Part shown: in pieces, positions 4,996 through 50,264 of the stretch
Layout of the letters: every line of letters begins with the position of its first letter
Numbering within the stretch: the first letter of the stretch is position 1
NCBI GenBank assembly: GCA_035556555.1
Contig: DATMES010000059.1
Location: 12,054 to 76,053 of the forward strand
DNA from: Frankiaceae bacterium
GTDB lineage: Bacteria; Actinomycetota; Actinomycetes; BP-191
Direction: 5' to 3'
Length of the DNA stretch: 64,000 nt
Made by a program: the position numbers and the translations under genes
Notes under the pieces: model-generated
The model's input: only the letters and a program-made list of their open reading frames with translations
Told to the model about the DNA's origin: nothing
Database searches by the model: none

Positions 4996-5083
4996 CGGAG
5001 TGCCTCCTTCCGCATGCCCAACGACCTCGACACCGGAGAGTTACGGGAAGGTCGCGGGGATTCCTGCCGATGTGCACGGAGCG

Positions 5084-11552: not shown

Positions 11553-11790
11553 GCGCAGACACCTCCGGTGTGAACCCGAGGCGGCTGCCGTCTCAATGTG
11601 CTGAGTCGGTAGACCAGGGACTGGCCGTTGACCCTTCGGTGGGCTGGCTGACTGCCGGAGCAGTTCCATGCCTTTGCGGCCCGCACTCGCGTGCGGTGTG
11701 CCTTTGTCGAGGTCGGCGGTCGTCTCGGTGCTGTTGGCTGAACACCAGGTGTATCGGCCGGTCTAGGAAGAACTTGAACCGAAAGAGTGA

Positions 11791-44080: not shown

Positions 44081-44279
44081 GAGCGCCTTCCTCGTGTGGA
44101 TGAGCACGCCGGAGCGCGAGCCCCGGCCGCCAGCGATACTACGTCCCTGGGCAGAGCGCCCGCGAATCCATCCGCCGCCCGCGCGCCGCGCGTCGCGGCC
44201 CGCCCCGTGATCGCCCCCGACAGCCAGGAAGGCCGGCTCCCCGTGCCCCGCCCCGCCACCCCCGCGGCCCACCCCCGGC

Positions 44280-44392
44280 GGTTACTGGTGAGTAGCGGCG
44301 CGCCGTATGGGGGAACTGGTGAGCCACGACGTCGCTACTCACCAGTAACCGCGGGTCGGCGGCGGCTCGCGGGCCGGGTACTGCCGGGCGCG
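44280..44392 (+). repeat. Structured repeat, copy A: 18-bp perfect inverted arms (GGTTACTGGTGAGTAGCG / CGCTACTCACCAGTAACC) around a 35-bp spacer, plus a shared tail. Lies in the divergent promoter region between the b6f-type operon and resA, and overlaps the resA 5' end
   Basis: Seen directly. A second copy at ~48198-48292 has identical arms, the first 20 nt of the spacer inverted, and a shared tail (GCGGG...CTGCCGGGCGCG). The ACTGGTGAG motif occurs three times per copy. Confidence 0.7.
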
Positions 44393-44944
44393 GTGGCGGC
44401 GGTCGTGCTCGTGGCCGGGTGCACCGGCGGGGGGTCGGAGACCACGTCCGGTACGCAGCGTTTCGTCGCAGGGGACGGGGTCGTGCACTACGTCCCCGCG
44501 GCCAACCGCGAGCCCGGTCCCGACATCGCCGGCGAGACGCTCGACGGGGAACGGCTCGACGTCGGCACGCTGCGCGCGGGCGGCGTCGCGGTCGTCAACA
44601 TCTGGGGCTCCTGGTGCGCCCCCTGCAAGAAGGAGCAGGGCGCGCTGGAACGCGTCGCCCGCGCGACCCGTTCCCGAGGGGTGCGGTTCGTCGGCATCAA
44701 CATCCGGGACTCCTCGAAGACCGCGGCGAGGATGCACGTGACGAAGTACGACGTGACGTACCCCTCGCTCTACGACCCCTCGGCCCGGCTGCTGCCACGC
44801 TTCGAGATCGCGCCCAAGACGATCCCCAGCACGTACGTCATCGACCCCGGCGGGCGCATCGCGGCGTACGTCTACGGCCCCATCGAGGAGCAGCCGCTGA
44901 CCGACCTCGTGGACCGGGTGCTCGCGGAGGCGGGCCCGGCGTGA
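44393..44944 (+). CDS. resA: Thioredoxin-like thiol-disulfide oxidoreductase ResA/TlpA family (lipoprotein-type signal, WCxxC)
   Basis: VLVAGC lipobox-like signal. The WCAPCKKE thioredoxin motif. Conserved position before ccdA. The start is uncertain: no canonical start lies upstream of the n-region RRRLAGR because the repeat arm occupies it. Shown from the first in-frame GTG. Confidence 0.7.
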   Translation: MAAVVLVAGCTGGGSETTSGTQRFVAGDGVVHYVPAANREPGPDIAGETLDGERLDVGTLRAGGVAVVNIWGSWCAPCKKEQGALERVARATRSRGVRFVGINIRDSSKTAARMHVTKYDVTYPSLYDPSARLLPRFEIAPKTIPSTYVIDPGGRIAAYVYGPIEEQPLTDLVDRVLAEAGPA

Positions 44945-45708
44945 ACGGCATCCAGGACACCGTCCTCAACGGCTCGCTGCTCGCGGCGCTGCCGCTGGCG
45001 CTGCTGGCGGGGCTGGTGTCGTTCCTCTCGCCGTGCGTGCTGCCGCTGGTCCCCGGCTACCTCTCGTACATCACCGGCCTCACCGGCGCCGACCTCGCCG
45101 AGGAGGAGGCCGGCGGCCGCGCGAAGCGCCGGGCGATGATCGGCGCGCTGCTGTTCGTGGGCGGGTTCTCGGTCGTGTTCGTCAGCGCGGGGGCGGCGTT
45201 CGGGGCGGCGGGTTCGTTCTTCGCGGACTACGCCACCGTCATCACGCGCGTGCTGGGCGTCGTGACGATCGTGCTCGGGCTGGCGTTCATGGGGGCGATG
45301 CAGCGGATCCCGTTCTTCTCGCGGGAGTTCAAGGTCCACAAGCTGCCGGCGACGGGGCTGGCGGGGGCGCCGTTCCTCGGGGTGCTGTTCGGGATCGGCT
45401 GGACGCCGTGCGCCGGACCGACGCTGACCGCGGTCAACTCGCTCGCGTACTCCACCGGCACGGCGGGCCGCGGGGCGGTGCTGTCGCTGGCGTACTGCCT
45501 CGGTCTCGGGCTGCCGTTCATCCTCGCGGGGCTGGCGTTCGAGAAGTCGATGTCGATGTTCGCGGTCGTCAAGCGGCACTACGCGCTGGTGACGCGGATC
45601 GGCGGCGGGCTGCTCGTCGTCATCGGCCTGCTGCTCGTGACCGGCTTCTGGGACCGGATCGTGGCGTACATGCAGGTCTGGGTCGGCGGCTTCGAGACGG
45701 TCGTATGA
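44941..45708 (+). CDS. ccdA: Cytochrome c-type biogenesis thiol:disulfide interchange membrane protein CcdA
   Basis: DsbD-beta core with the two conserved Cys (FLSPCVLPLVPGY and GWTPCAGP). Confidence 0.85.
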   Translation: MNGIQDTVLNGSLLAALPLALLAGLVSFLSPCVLPLVPGYLSYITGLTGADLAEEEAGGRAKRRAMIGALLFVGGFSVVFVSAGAAFGAAGSFFADYATVITRVLGVVTIVLGLAFMGAMQRIPFFSREFKVHKLPATGLAGAPFLGVLFGIGWTPCAGPTLTAVNSLAYSTGTAGRGAVLSLAYCLGLGLPFILAGLAFEKSMSMFAVVKRHYALVTRIGGGLLVVIGLLLVTGFWDRIVAYMQVWVGGFETVV

Positions 45709-47228
45709 CGGCCACGCTCTCGACGTCGCCGGAGGAGCGCGAGGTCTCGCCTCGCCGCGTCCGGCCGCTCCGCCGCGCCTGGGGCCAGCTGACGTCGATG
45801 CGGACGGCGCTGCTGCTGCTGTTCCTGCTGGCGCTGGCCGCGGTGCCCGGCTCGCTGCTGCCGCAGCGCAACCTCGACCTGCTCGCGGTGCAGACGTACT
45901 ACGCCGAGCACCCCTCGCTCGCGCCGACGCTGGACCGGCTGTACCTGTTCGACGTGTACGCCTCGCCGTGGTTCATGGCGATCTACCTCGCGCTGATGAT
46001 CTCGCTGGTCGGCTGCCTCGCGCCGCGGATCCGGCTGCACGCGCGGGCACTCGTACGCCGTCCGCCCGCGCCGCCCGCGCACCTCTCGCGTCTCCCCGCC
46101 TACCGGTCCTGGGTGACGGACGCGGCGCCGGCCGAGGTGGAGGCGTCGGCCGCGAAGGCGCTGCGGCGCTGGCGGGTGCGCTCGTACGACGGCCGCGGCG
46201 TCGCCGCCGAGCGCGGCTACCTCCGCGAGACCGGCAACCTCCTCTTCCACGTGGCCCTGCTCACGCTGCTCGTCGGCATCGGGATCGGCGCGGCGTACGG
46301 CTACCAGGGCGCGGTGCTGGTGGTGGAGGGCGACACGTTCGTCAACACGCCCGCCGCCTACGACGAGCTCCGTCCAGGCCGGCTGAACTCGGTGGAGGAC
46401 CTGCCGCCGTTCGAGGTCACACTCGACGACTTCCGGGCGACCTATCTGGACAACGGGGCGCCGACGTCGTTCGCGGCGGATGTCCGGTGGCGCCCCTCGC
46501 CCGACGACGCGGTGCGGCCGCGGACGGTGAAGGTGAACGAGCCCCTCACCGTCGACGGCGCGCGCGTCTACCTGCTCGACCACGGCTACGCGCTGCACTT
46601 CACCGCCACGCTGCCCGACGGCACCGTGATCTACGACCAGTGGCAGCCGTTCCTCCCCGAGCGCGGCGACCCGAACCTCGCCTCCGACGGGGCGTTGAAG
46701 ATCACCGACCTGCCCGGCGGGCTGCCGGACATCGGGCTGCGGGGTCTGTTCACGCCGACGCTGGGGGTGCGGCAGGGGTTCGCGTACTCGCAGTTCCCCG
46801 CGGCGCACCTGCCGGCGTTCGCGTACGAGGTCTGGGCCGGCGACCTCGGCCTGTCGAGCGGCGTACCCCAGTCGGTCTACGACCTCGACACGTCGAAGAT
46901 GACGAAGACGAGCAACGGCATCGTCTTCGAGGGCCAGACCATCGAACGGCTGCCCGGCGGGGCCACGCTGACGTTCGACGGGGTGAAGGACTTCGCGGTC
47001 TTCCAGGTGACGGTGGACCCGGGCAAGTACCTCGTGCTCGGCTCGGCCGTCGCGGCGCTGACCGGTCTCGTGCTGTCGCTGCGGGTACGGCGGCGGCGGG
47101 TCTGGGTGCGGGCGACGCCGACCGAGGCCGGTACCCTCGTGGAGGTCGGCGGGCTGGCCCGGCAGGACCCCGAGGCGTTCGCGCCCGAGGTCGCCAGGCT
47201 CGCCGAACGAATGGGAGGACCACCCTGA
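45705..47228 (+). CDS. resB: Cytochrome c biogenesis protein ResB/CcsB
   Basis: ResB architecture: N-terminal TMs (MRTALLLLFLLALAAVPGSLLPQ), a large soluble domain and a C-terminal TM. Sits between ccdA and ccsA. Confidence 0.85.
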   Translation: MTATLSTSPEEREVSPRRVRPLRRAWGQLTSMRTALLLLFLLALAAVPGSLLPQRNLDLLAVQTYYAEHPSLAPTLDRLYLFDVYASPWFMAIYLALMISLVGCLAPRIRLHARALVRRPPAPPAHLSRLPAYRSWVTDAAPAEVEASAAKALRRWRVRSYDGRGVAAERGYLRETGNLLFHVALLTLLVGIGIGAAYGYQGAVLVVEGDTFVNTPAAYDELRPGRLNSVEDLPPFEVTLDDFRATYLDNGAPTSFAADVRWRPSPDDAVRPRTVKVNEPLTVDGARVYLLDHGYALHFTATLPDGTVIYDQWQPFLPERGDPNLASDGALKITDLPGGLPDIGLRGLFTPTLGVRQGFAYSQFPAAHLPAFAYEVWAGDLGLSSGVPQSVYDLDTSKMTKTSNGIVFEGQTIERLPGGATLTFDGVKDFAVFQVTVDPGKYLVLGSAVAALTGLVLSLRVRRRRVWVRATPTEAGTLVEVGGLARQDPEAFAPEVARLAERMGGPP

Positions 47229-48169
47229 TGCCGATCGACGCCGGCCTGGCGAGCGCGAGCGACAACCTGCTCTTCGCGGCCGTCGTGGCGTACGTCGTCG
47301 CGATGCTCGGCTACTTCGTCGAGTTCGCGTCCGGTCGTCGCGTGCCCTTGCCGATCGCGGGTGGCGCCACGGACACCGCTCTCCCGCCGTCGTACGTGGC
47401 GTCGGTCGAGTCCGCGTCGCGGCGCGGGCGGCTCGGGCTGTGGTGCGGCCGTGGCGCTGTGGCGCTGACGGTGGTGGGCTGGGGGCTGCACGCTGGTGCC
47501 GCCGTGCTGCGCGGCCTCGCGACCGACCGGGTGCCGTGGGGGAACATGTACGAGTTCTCCTCGATGGTCTGCCTGATCGGCGTGACGTCGTTCCTCGTGC
47601 TGCTGGTACGGCAGCCGGTGCGCTACCTCGGCGGCTTCGTGATGCTGCCGGTGGTGCTGACGCTGGGGCTCGCGTCGTCGGTGCTGTACGCGCCCGCGGC
47701 TCCTTTGGTACCCGCGCTCAACTCGTACTGGATCAAGATCCACGTGGTCGCGGCGATGACGGCGTTCGGCGTGTTCATGGTGGGGATCGTGGCGACGCTG
47801 CTGTATCTGGTGGCTGTGCGGCTGGAGGCCCGGGGGCGCGGTGCGTCGCGGCTGCCGGCCGCCGCCTCGCTGGACCGGGTCGCCTACAGGACGATCGCCT
47901 TTGCCTTCCCGATCTGGACCTTTGCCGTGATGGCCGGCGCGGTGTGGGCCGAGGCGTCGTGGGGGCGGTACTGGGGCTGGGACCCCAAGGAGACGTGGTC
48001 GTTCATCACGTGGGTGCTCTACGCGGGCTACCTGCACGCGCGCGCGACGGCCGGGTGGCGCGGGTCCCGCGCGGCCTGGGTGGCGGTCGCCGGCTTCGTG
48101 GCGCTGATGTTCACGTACTACGGCGTCAACATCTGGATCCCCGGCCTCCACTCGTACTCGGGCGTGTAG
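47228..48169 (+). CDS. ccsA: Cytochrome c-type biogenesis protein CcsA/ResC (heme exporter/lyase subunit)
   Basis: WWD-domain region (WGRYWGWDPKETWSFITW) with the conserved His residues. Confidence 0.85.
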   Translation: MPIDAGLASASDNLLFAAVVAYVVAMLGYFVEFASGRRVPLPIAGGATDTALPPSYVASVESASRRGRLGLWCGRGAVALTVVGWGLHAGAAVLRGLATDRVPWGNMYEFSSMVCLIGVTSFLVLLVRQPVRYLGGFVMLPVVLTLGLASSVLYAPAAPLVPALNSYWIKIHVVAAMTAFGVFMVGIVATLLYLVAVRLEARGRGASRLPAAASLDRVAYRTIAFAFPIWTFAVMAGAVWAEASWGRYWGWDPKETWSFITWVLYAGYLHARATAGWRGSRAAWVAVAGFVALMFTYYGVNIWIPGLHSYSGV

Positions 48170-48197
48170 GTCGCGCGCCCGACCCGGCGCCGCCGGA

Positions 48198-48292
48198 GGT
48201 TACTGGTGAGTAGCGACGTCGCGGCTCACCAGTTCGTGCTCGCTGTTTGTCGCTACTCACCAGTAACCGCGGGCCCACTGCCGGGCGCGCCG
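48198..48292 (+). repeat. Structured repeat, copy B: same 18-bp inverted arms as copy A, 35-bp spacer with an inverted core, shared tail. Lies between ccsA and the CcoN-like gene
   Basis: Seen directly. The arms are identical to copy A. Spacer ACGTCGCGGCTCACCAGTTC is the reverse complement of the copy A spacer segment GAACTGGTGAGCCACGACGT (1 mismatch). Confidence 0.7.
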
Positions 48293-48360
48293 GTTTCAGC
48301 CCAGCGCGGCGCGCCGACTATCCTCTGCGTCGCTCGCCCGACGCGTTCCCGGAGGCTCCT

Positions 48361-49749
48361 GTGACTGTCACGACGTCGGCGTCGACGGCGTCGGAGCGGG
48401 AGGCCGCCGCCTGGGAGGCGCCGTACGGTCCCGCGCTGACGTACCTCGTCGCCGGCACGTTCTGCCTCGCCATCGGCGGCCTGCTCATGCTGCTCGCCGC
48501 GGCGCAGACGGTGTCGCCGGACCTGTTCACGATCGGCGGGTCGACGTCGTTCGGCCGCATCCGCCCGGCGGCCCACCTGCTGCTCGTCTACGGCGGCCTC
48601 GGCATGGTGGGCAACGGCGTCGCCCTCGACGTCGCGCGCCGCGCCGCCAAGGCCCCCGCGAGCCTCGACAAGCTGGTCCGCGCCGCGGGCGCCGTGACGA
48701 CGATCGGCGTCGTCGGGAGCGTCGCCGCGGTCCTGCTCGGGCACTCGACGGGGCGCGTCGGCTTCGAGATGCCGCGCCCGTTCGCGGCGCTGCTCGCGCT
48801 CGGCCAGCTTCTCGTGCTGCTGGCGGTGCTGCGTACGCTCTCTCGCCGCACGACGAGCGACCTGCACCCGTCGCTGTGGTTCGTGGTGGCGGCGCTGTTC
48901 TGCGCGCCGTTCGTCATCCTCGCGGGCTCGCTGCCCGCCGTCCGCGGCATCAACGACGAGATCGTGCTGTCGTTCGGCATCTCCGGGCTGAAGCTGCTCT
49001 GGCTGATCCCGCTCGGCATCGGCGCCGCGCTCTACGTCGTCCCCAACGCCGGCCGCGCCGCGCTGCACAGCCGCCAGCTGGCGCTGGTGGCGTTCTGGGG
49101 CTGGTTCCTCTTCGCGCCGTTCGCCGGGCCGATGCGCCTCGTGTCGGGCCCCGCGCAGGAGTGGCTCGAGACGGTCGGCGTCGCCGCGTCGATCGCGCTC
49201 GGCGCGCCGTTGCTCGCGGTCGTCGTGCTGCTCCTCGCGACGTACTCCCGGCGTACGTCGCTCGCCCACGGTGCCGACCTGCGCCTCGCCCTCGCGGGCG
49301 TGGGGCTGCTGGCGTTCTGGGGGCTCACGTCGATGCTGACGGCGGGCCGTACGGCCGGCGCCCTCCTGCACGGCTCGGTCGCGGCGGACGGGCTCGCCGA
49401 GCTGGCGCTGTTCGGGGTCGCGGGGGCGCTGCTGCTGGCGGGGGTGTTCCACGCGCTGCCGAGCGTCACGGGCGACCGCATCGCCAACGTCCGCGTGGCC
49501 GGCTCCACCGTCTGGCTGCTCGCGGCCGGCGCCGCTCTCGTCGCGCTGTCGCTGCTCGTCGGCGGCTACGTCCAGGGGATGCTCCTGGAGCAGGGCGTCC
49601 GCACCGGCGGCGAGTCGTTCGCCGAGGTCGCCGACGCGATCGAGCCGATGCTCTGGCTCCGCGTCGTAGGCGAGGCGCTCGTCGCGCTGGCCTGGGTGAT
49701 GGCGTTCCAGCAGGTGTTCTCGACGTCGACCGCGAGCGACGGGGAGTAG
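48361..49749 (+). CDS. 12-TM heme-copper-oxidase-like (CcoN/NorB-like) membrane subunit lacking the canonical adjacent His-His CuB pair
   Basis: 462 aa with 12 predicted TM helices. 7 His spread across helices but no HH dipeptide. GTG start preceded by GGAGG. Translationally coupled to a bona fide CcoO-like gene. Confidence 0.55.
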   Translation: MTVTTSASTASEREAAAWEAPYGPALTYLVAGTFCLAIGGLLMLLAAAQTVSPDLFTIGGSTSFGRIRPAAHLLLVYGGLGMVGNGVALDVARRAAKAPASLDKLVRAAGAVTTIGVVGSVAAVLLGHSTGRVGFEMPRPFAALLALGQLLVLLAVLRTLSRRTTSDLHPSLWFVVAALFCAPFVILAGSLPAVRGINDEIVLSFGISGLKLLWLIPLGIGAALYVVPNAGRAALHSRQLALVAFWGWFLFAPFAGPMRLVSGPAQEWLETVGVAASIALGAPLLAVVVLLLATYSRRTSLAHGADLRLALAGVGLLAFWGLTSMLTAGRTAGALLHGSVAADGLAELALFGVAGALLLAGVFHALPSVTGDRIANVRVAGSTVWLLAAGAALVALSLLVGGYVQGMLLEQGVRTGGESFAEVADAIEPMLWLRVVGEALVALAWVMAFQQVFSTSTASDGE

Positions 49750-49751
49750 CG

Positions 49752-50264
49752 ATGCCGAGCCTGTTCCCCGTGATCGCCGGGCCAGCGCTGCTCGTCGCCG
49801 CCGGCTACGGCGTCACCGTCGTCGCGCCGGCCACCGAGCGGACCAACACCGTCCGCACCGAGGAGACCCGCGAGTACACCGTCGGCGCCGGCAAGGGCCG
49901 CGAGATCTACGCCGCCAACGGCTGCGTCTACTGCCACTCGCTGCAGCGCCGCGACACGTACGCCGACGCCGCGCTCGGGCCCGCGCCGTCCTCGAACAAG
50001 GAGGCGCTGAACGACCGACCGGCGATGCTCGGCGACGTCCGCTACGGCCCCGACCTCTCCTGCGCCGGCGACCATGTGCCCGGTGCCGCCGAGGACGCCG
50101 ACACCGACGCGCGGATCGACGCGATGGTCGCGTACCTGGAGCACCCGGAGCGCGCGCACGAGGGGTCGACGATGCCGTCGTACGCCTTCCTGAAGCACGA
50201 CGACCTGCGCCGGCTGGCGTCGTACCTCGTCGAGCACACCTGCGCCGCGGAGGCCGCCGAATGA
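49752..50264 (+). CDS. Membrane-anchored monoheme cytochrome c subunit of cbb3/NOR type (CcoO/FixO-like)
   Basis: N-terminal TM, then GREIYAANGCVYCHS (CxxCH) and the FixO-like motifs GPDLSCAGD and MPSYAFL. Strong family resemblance to cbb3 subunit II. Confidence 0.7.
   Translation: MPSLFPVIAGPALLVAAGYGVTVVAPATERTNTVRTEETREYTVGAGKGREIYAANGCVYCHSLQRRDTYADAALGPAPSSNKEALNDRPAMLGDVRYGPDLSCAGDHVPGAAEDADTDARIDAMVAYLEHPERAHEGSTMPSYAFLKHDDLRRLASYLVEHTCAAEAAE

Follow-up and report, generated by a model that had tools for sequence, protein, structure and literature searches.

The 64,000-nt stretch of Frankiaceae DNA analysed here (the window) carries a cytochrome c maturation cluster, resA-ccdA-resB-ccsA, bracketed by two copies of a structured palindromic repeat, which raises the question of what these copies are and whether they act on the respiratory genes around them. 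Copy A lies at 44280-44350, on the minus strand in the orientation of the family consensus given below (72.5 bits with an nhmmer profile of the family), and copy B at 48198-48268, on the plus strand (80.9 bits). A first-pass annotation had proposed three roles, a shared operator, a small invertible switch or a mobile hairpin akin to repetitive extragenic palindromes (REP) or transposable elements of the miniature inverted-repeat type (MITEs), and only the last of these fits the evidence. Copies A and B very probably belong, independently of each other, to a family of non-coding repeats that form hairpins and are dispersed in uncultured Frankiaceae-like actinobacteria, and neither appears to be a dedicated regulator of respiration. 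The family resembles REPs, the hairpin-forming REP doublets (REPINs) or MITEs, and is apparently undescribed. A literature search for the arm sequences found no paper, and searches for MITEs, REPINs or their REP-associated tyrosine transposases (RAYTs) in actinobacteria or Frankia gave nothing relevant.

Each copy is built on two inverted arms. The 18-mer GGTTACTGGTGAGTAGCG has exactly four exact matches in the window, at 44280-44297 (+) and 44333-44350 (-) in copy A and at 48198-48215 (+) and 48251-48268 (-) in copy B, against 0.06 matches in shuffled sequence even with three mismatches tolerated. The right arm of copy A thus reads CGCTACTCACCAGTAACC on the plus strand, and the identical, mutually reverse-complementary arms of the first-pass annotation were confirmed, as was their separation by 35 bp in both copies. 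The 9-mer ACTGGTGAG occurs six times in the 64 kb, three times in each copy in the orientations first described and nowhere else (0.29 expected by chance). A relaxed search with a 13-mer arm core gave nothing else convincing in the window, and the family profile found no further copy there.

The complete unit measures 71 bp, or about 81 bp including a variable outer stem. It runs from the arm GGTTACTGGTGAGTAGCG(AC) through about 10 nt centred on the palindrome GCGACGTCGC to a third arm core (TCACCAGTTC), followed by a variable linker of about 15 nt and the inverted arm. In copy B, the arm and the inner site together form a 90% palindrome.

The centre of the repeat had been reported as inverted between the copies. 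The opposite orientation was indeed observed, but the shared 20-mer is not the start of the spacer in both: it occupies the last 20 nt of the copy A spacer (GAACTGGTGAGCCACGACGT, 44313-44332, with the third ACTGGTGAG site at 44315-44323) and the first 20 nt of the copy B spacer (ACGTCGCGGCTCACCAGTTC, 48216-48235, with the third site CTCACCAGT at 48225-48233), with one mismatch. Moreover, the reverse complement of copy A aligns base for base with copy B, as arm, ACGTCG[T/C]GGCTCACCAGTTC, 15 nt and arm. The copies differ in the orientation of the entire element, not of the centre alone. Since the arms are exact reverse complements, two elements in opposite orientation give the appearance of identical arms around a flipped centre. 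Oriented alike, A and B are 83% identical. Each is closer to copies in another genome, copy A being 91.5% identical to L046 and copy B 95.8% to L031, and their linkers fall in different sub-lineages. Judged by these alignments, they are independent members of the repeat family at two independent sites.

These results bear directly on the invertible switch, in which the 35-bp core would flip by recombination between the arms. The opposite inner parts of A and B suggested it, and copies of opposite orientation at the 3′ end of rsgA in two genomes (described below) are in line with it. However, symmetric arms make a turn of the whole element indistinguishable from an inversion of the core, and the two copies come from different sub-lineages. 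Both orientations are common across the family, with 30 copies one way and 15 the other, while the window locus itself is on record in a single assembly. No recombinase or transposase family, as would accompany a Hin/Fim-type switch, appears in the gene table for 10 kb either side of the copies, and no promoter-like site was found in the 35-bp core. The sole external marker of orientation, the tail beside copy B, is in part native flank. A programmed switch is therefore very improbable.

That tail was described as shared by the two copies. In the window, exact matches to the 13-mer ACTGCCGGGCGCG are indeed confined to 44380-44392 (+) and 48277-48289 (+). Both stand to the same side of their copy, though not equally far from it, and each forms a small GC hairpin. 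The GCGCGCCGGTTTC part of the B tail is native flank, conserved in element-free relatives, while the occurrence beside copy A encodes part of the ResA signal peptide. The 13-mer was not found beside other members of the family, and the tail was consequently rejected as a feature of the element. Chance, target preference or local gene conversion are candidate reasons for its presence beside both A and B.

The extent of the family was assessed with a metagenome pattern scan for ACTGGTGAGTA-N20-50-TACTCACCAGT, which returned 42 loci. Of these, 38 share the 71-bp architecture with exactly 41 nt between the cores and hold 40 copies, 32 of them within a single assembly, where they are spread over 23 of its largest contigs (1.86 Mb in total). 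Four loci of other metagenomes (L018 2564-2635, L032 684-743, L049 669-714 and L050 1127-1182) have only the 11-mer cores ACTGGTGAGTA/TACTCACCAGT within unrelated near-perfect palindromes, and were set aside as probable chance matches among generic hairpins. Together with those of the two Frankiaceae genomes named below and the two of the window, 45 copies were collected, which align without gaps over 71 nt at a mean column identity of 82%. The family consensus is (G/A)GTTACTGGTGAGTAGCGACGTCGCnGyTCACCAGTTCGTGCTCGGCnnnnGTCGCTACTCACCAGTAAC(C/T), often extended by CCGGA...TCCGG.

Two Frankiaceae metagenome-assembled genomes (MAGs) of the species-genome collection carry copies (L001 and L009), and one of the large metagenome contigs, that behind a further locus (L016), is orthologous to a copy-bearing Frankiaceae MAG at 82-88% nucleotide identity. 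An exact scan of 185,579 species genomes with the 18-mer, the source species not being among them, gave nine single matches, four of which lie in low-GC or non-actinobacterial records, in line with chance. No match to the repeat was found in viral contigs, plasmids or phages, nor in Rfam at the gathering threshold; at the E-value threshold, Rfam returned only generic hairpins of microRNA precursors, far under their cut-offs. Shorter relatives were seen in Hamadaea and a Mycobacteriales MAG (L007 6932-6976 and L008 4595-4638), beside accA-like and fadE-like genes. One consists of an arm and a degenerate partner 12-15 nt away, the other of two diverged arms about 10 nt apart. Both could represent the family in a singlet or deleted form.

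The genes beside the copies have little in common. The 77 flanking proteins gave 112 Pfam families, no family counting more than two members and no respiratory one being represented; among the genes are those for PFK, DXP synthase, GluRS, DnaE, SucC, NDK, CorA and RsgA. According to the first-pass annotation, a generic REP or MITE would be implied by dozens of copies dispersed without connection to respiratory genes, and this is what was found in a related genome. Out of 27 classifiable copies, 12 lie between convergent, 11 between tandem and four between divergent gene pairs. Copies between tandem genes show no orientation bias with respect to transcription (seven against four). Many copies start 10-60 nt past a stop codon, and several open reading frames (ORFs) end at the TAG of the arm itself. 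Pairs of copies 0.7-1.5 kb apart are also found around other genes, one of them enclosing rsgA (L015) and another an aquaporin/phosphatase pair (L026), so the bracketing of the res/ccs operon is not special. These latter pairs, 1.3-1.5 kb apart, enclose no transposase, nor does any other arm pair in the collected loci.

In the window, the genes on the minus strand beside copy A were assigned by Pfam to a cytochrome c, a Rieske protein, a split cytochrome b, a 4Fe-4S ferredoxin and a 104-aa protein, and those on the plus strand to resA, ccdA, resB and ccsA, followed by a COX1-like gene and its FixO-like partner. An exact look-up of the ferredoxin gave no entry on record. A regulatory role was examined by comparison with six loci that encode CcsB proteins 81-85% identical to that of the window and share the same synteny (L010, L011/L012, L013, L058 and L059). 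Copy B is absent from every relative that covers its site (L010, L011, L013 and L058), and the site of copy A is empty in L011, L013 and L059.

A shared operator would have a dimeric regulator coordinate the b6f-like complex, cytochrome c maturation and the haem-copper oxidase. In the genome of the window the copies do stand on either side of the res/ccs operon, with two further respiratory operons nearby. Yet the same three operons are kept in the relatives without the element, which is missing at the orthologous sites of L010, L011, L013 and L059 and, for copy B, of L058 as well; overall, copy A is lacking in four of five relatives. Copy A, as shown below, is contained in the resA ORF and stands 200 nt away from where the first gene of the qcr-like operon starts. 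Another 40 copies adjoin unrelated genes, with no enrichment among the Pfam families, and nearly half of the classifiable copies stand between converging genes. Finally, two copies in 64 kb is close to the background density of the family, about one per 56 kb. The shared operator is thus highly unlikely.

Copy A had been placed in a divergent promoter region, with no canonical start codon upstream of the ResA signal peptide. Neither point held. A ribosome-binding site AGGAAGG (44226-44232) is followed by a GTG start codon (44243-44245), both on the plus strand, and the same site precedes an ATG or GTG in L011, L013, L058 and L059, the orthologous genes starting 9-10 nt after AGGAAGG. Copy A begins 37 nt past the GTG, and the reading frame is open through the element into ResA. 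The pipeline call of resA begins at 44405 (MLVAGC...) and lacks the signal peptide. From the upstream start, a lipoprotein precursor is obtained which consists of VPRPATPAAHPRR, 23 residues encoded by the element and AGRRRLAGRVLPGAVAAVVLVAGC. On the strength of this conserved start region, resA is assigned to 44243-44944 (+, 233 aa) with its start at 44243 and not at 44405, and translation would read through copy A, which encodes residues 14-36 (LLVSSGAPYGGTGEPRRRYSPVT) before the lipobox LVAGC. The gene caller was probably misled by the hairpin insertion at the 5′ end of the gene. The gene call of the L058 orthologue is shortened in the same way.

The element has exactly one stop-free frame per strand, reading LLVSS...RYSPVT, which is open in 44 of the 45 copies on one strand and in 38 on the other. 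ResA uses the sole stop-free frame of copy A. Copy A may have been tolerated, and have survived, within resA because it landed in this one frame. Its presence would add about 23-36 residues to the n-region of the lipoprotein signal peptide of ResA, and would put a hairpin of about -50 kcal/mol within the ORF, 37 nt from its start. The closest parallel is found in the Rickettsia palindromic elements, copies of which can lie in frame inside protein-coding genes, adding a peptide.

Copy B was correctly placed between ccsA and the CcoN-like gene. The ccsA/ccsB gene (47228-48169, +), whose product is 100% identical to a protein from a "Frankiaceae bacterium" MAG (P0001), ends with its stop codon 28 nt before the repeat. 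Outside the repeat, two boxes, CCGGTTTC (48290-48297) and GACTATCCTCTG (48316-48327), precede the COX1-like gene (start at 48361) on the plus strand. Both are kept in L011, L013 and L058, and the second alone in L010, in all cases without the element; the 3′ part of the B tail therefore belongs to the native flank. The boxes may be the promoter of the COX1-like gene. The stable hairpin of copy B may protect the 3′ end of the operon or insulate it from the next promoter.

The spacer between ccsA and the COX1-like gene (48170-48360) appears as a variable slot, filled by an SMR gene in L011, by Fic and a small gene in L013 and by nothing in L010 and L058. The COX1-family gene at 48361-50264 and the FixO-like cytochrome c subunit downstream form a cbb3-like CcoN/CcoO pair, which adjoins the operon for the split cytochrome b, Rieske protein and ferredoxin, an arrangement kept in all relatives compared. 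Elsewhere in the window, a c-di-GMP-I riboswitch aptamer (RF01051) was detected at 11635-11712 (-); its 50.3 bits exceed the gathering score of 35, and no other Rfam family passed its threshold in the window.

Segments of both copies fold as long hairpins with z-scores of -4.2 to -6.6, the 81-nt cores having folding energies of -48 to -56 kcal/mol. The pairing is supported by covariation across the family: columns 10 and 78 form GC in 41 copies and CG in four and are never unpaired, and columns 11 and 77 form UA in 33 and CG in six. None of 500 shuffles equalled the observed covariation score. The inner third site, which the search pattern did not demand, is 84-100% conserved per column, with a CACC core that is invariant in 45 of 45 copies, while identity in the linker columns is 44-70%. 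The inner arm is the best conserved part, and conservation falls off toward the tips. Degenerate copies are few, about seven beside 45 with perfect cores in the same 442 kb; because so few have decayed arms, either the arms are under constraint or the family is young.

Such conservation could reflect host use. Hairpins recruited at gene ends as bidirectional terminators, 3′-end stabilisers of mRNA or insulators, as proposed for the Tuberculosis Rho-independent terminator (TRIT) of Mycobacterium, would be compatible with a mobile origin. The many copies 10-60 nt past a stop codon, the 12 of 27 between convergent genes, the arms being much better conserved than the linker, the very stable folds and the position of copy B after ccsA all agree with this. 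On the other hand, a terminator scan found none and the hairpins are not followed by a U-tract. Of the 27 classifiable copies, four lie between divergent genes, one copy lies within a coding region, and the conserved third site in the loop would be superfluous for a terminator. Recruitment of this kind is a possible explanation, though a doubtful one.

TRIT, from a related high-GC lineage, is the closest known system within the phylum, likened here by description and not by sequence. It is a conserved palindromic bidirectional hairpin with about 147 copies per genome at gene termini (Gardner et al. 2011, PMC3152330) and was reported as restricted to Mycobacterium (PMC3152330). Its centre lies about 8 nt inside the coding end, in contrast to the present family, which mostly starts 10-60 nt after the stop codon. 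By Term-seq in M. tuberculosis, TRIT predictions overlap few of the real, mapped 3′ ends (10.1101/2022.06.01.494293), which calls for caution over a terminator role of the window repeat and weighs against the recruited hairpins.

Alternatively, the copies could be genome-wide sites for one DNA-binding protein, nucleoid-associated or a TetR-like dimer, with the three ACTGGTGAG sites under selection. All three are highly conserved while the linkers vary, and in the diverged copy of L058 the same two substitutions occur in all three sites (CGTGGG for GGTGAG). However, covariation in the stem is also seen beyond the core, a sign of pairing and not of base-specific recognition. Furthermore, homology extends over all 71 nt, spacing included, as in a copied element, the single-arm relatives L007 and L008 have other loop lengths, and no gene for a candidate protein is linked to the copies. 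This explanation is considered unlikely. The motif GTGAGTA resembles the half-site of SlmA, a likeness that is not used as evidence.

In its behaviour, the repeat is closest to the REP, bacterial interspersed mosaic element (BIME) and REPIN sequences of Proteobacteria, which are mobilised by RAYT, a Y1 HUH transposase. Like these, it consists of short, dispersed and mostly extragenic palindromes, which in REP and REPIN families number tens to hundreds of copies; here, 32 exact-core copies were counted in the related assembly, not in the source genome. It likewise forms stable hairpins, has an inverted-repeat layout with a variable spacer and lacks a target-site duplication: no direct repeat of at least 3 nt was enriched at any offset pair around the 45 copies. 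Clustering at gene 3′ ends, persistence across related species and a stem kept by compensatory change are further common traits.

Unlike a REPIN, the unit holds three half-sites instead of four, an arm and the inner site forming one palindrome and the other side offering an arm only. The host also differs, being an actinobacterium. In a passage on taxonomy (PMC5581495), RAYT groups are placed in Proteobacteria, Clostridia, Cyanobacteria, Chlorobia and Caldilineae, with no mention of Actinobacteria. When E. coli RayT was run by phmmer against all ORFs of at least 70 aa in the roughly 460 kb of collected loci, no match with E<1 was obtained.

With MITEs, such as the Correia elements of Neisseria, the repeat shares its small size, terminal inverted repeats and polymorphism between relatives; its arms match perfectly across 18-20 bp, and with 71-81 bp the unit has no coding capacity. 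It differs from them by the lack of a target-site duplication and by a conservation that decays toward the tips, the opposite of termini cut by a transposase, and no parent insertion sequence (IS) with matching ends was found in the loci examined. The only transposase seen adjoining a copy (L019, DDE_Tnp_1_4) belongs to an IS beside a complete element and does not have the repeat as its terminus. Taken together, the stem covariation, the conserved inner site, the missing target-site duplication and the IS beside an intact element agree better with a hairpin element of the REP/REPIN kind than with a cut-and-paste MITE. A MITE of the IS630 type with TA duplication was rejected, as the bases outside the possible TA are conserved and covarying and hence belong to the element. 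An integron attC site was likewise dismissed, the copies lying among core housekeeping genes.

Gain and loss of copies were observed between related genomes. The spacer between pfk and a DUF1028 gene holds three tandem copies in L001 (3741-4000) and none in the orthologous spacer of L016 (around 5033-5060). In L001, the triple insertion and extra sequence split a native palindromic spacer of 25 nt (GACCCTA-T-TAGGGTC), which is intact in L016.

At the resA site, L058 carries at 1218-1289 a diverged 71-bp homologue, in the same orientation as copy A and in frame. This locus is not the sister of the window: ResB and CcsB are 82.4% identical to those of the window, compared with 85.5% for the closest locus, L011, where the site is empty. 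By this comparison, either an old insertion would have been precisely lost at least twice, or the site would have been struck twice. Similarly, L015 (3840-3910) and L048 (1989-2059) each have a copy just past the stop codon of rsgA, the RsgA proteins being 77% identical. These two copies are of opposite orientation and different sub-lineages and could be due to re-use of the site or to flipping in place, which over evolutionary time is possible given the opposite orientations in the two genomes.

Several observations weigh against a mobile repeat family. The source genome itself directly shows two copies in 64 kb only, the dozens being those of a related assembly that is assumed to be one genome. 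A mobilising gene was looked for and not found, be it a RayT homologue in the approximately 460 kb or an IS sharing the arms. A clean pair of filled and empty sites is lacking as well; comparison of L001 with L016 and of L021 with L001 shows gain or loss, in regions too rearranged to fix the ends of the element. Random insertion does not predict that the resA site is also occupied in L058, nor that two genomes have a copy at the 3′ end of rsgA. Nor does this reading account for the 13-mer tail common to A and B, which has a chance probability of about 0.0016 per pair of flanks. Lastly, the conservation of the arms lies far above neutral decay (45 perfect-core against about seven degenerate copies), which may mean host function and not selfish spread.

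Nevertheless, the dispersed family of hairpin repeats remains the most probable identity of copies A and B. The family would spread as a non-autonomous element, recognised by way of its hairpin or of its three matching sites, and most likely in the manner of REPs and REPINs; the mobilising enzyme was not found. A more specific version of this proposal is speculative and rather improbable: a hitherto unrecognised REPIN-like intragenomic replicator in Actinomycetota with sites in a 2+1 arrangement, a choice between two hairpins that exclude each other (one pairing the arm with the inner site, the other the two arms) and a mobiliser not recognisable as RayT that leaves no target-site duplication. 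Such an element would return to the same sites, as at the signal-peptide codons of resA in the window and L058 and at rsgA in L015 and L048, and might flip by a template switch from arm to arm.

The identification removes a false lead, namely that a common operator or switch joins the b6f-like complex, cytochrome c maturation and the oxidase. It also corrects the annotation of resA, the signal peptide of which is predicted to hold an in-frame insertion of the repeat, as in the L058 orthologue. More generally, repeats of this type mislead gene callers, break assemblies and pass for regulatory palindromes. Should a mobilising enzyme be found, REPIN-type biology would be extended to a new phylum.

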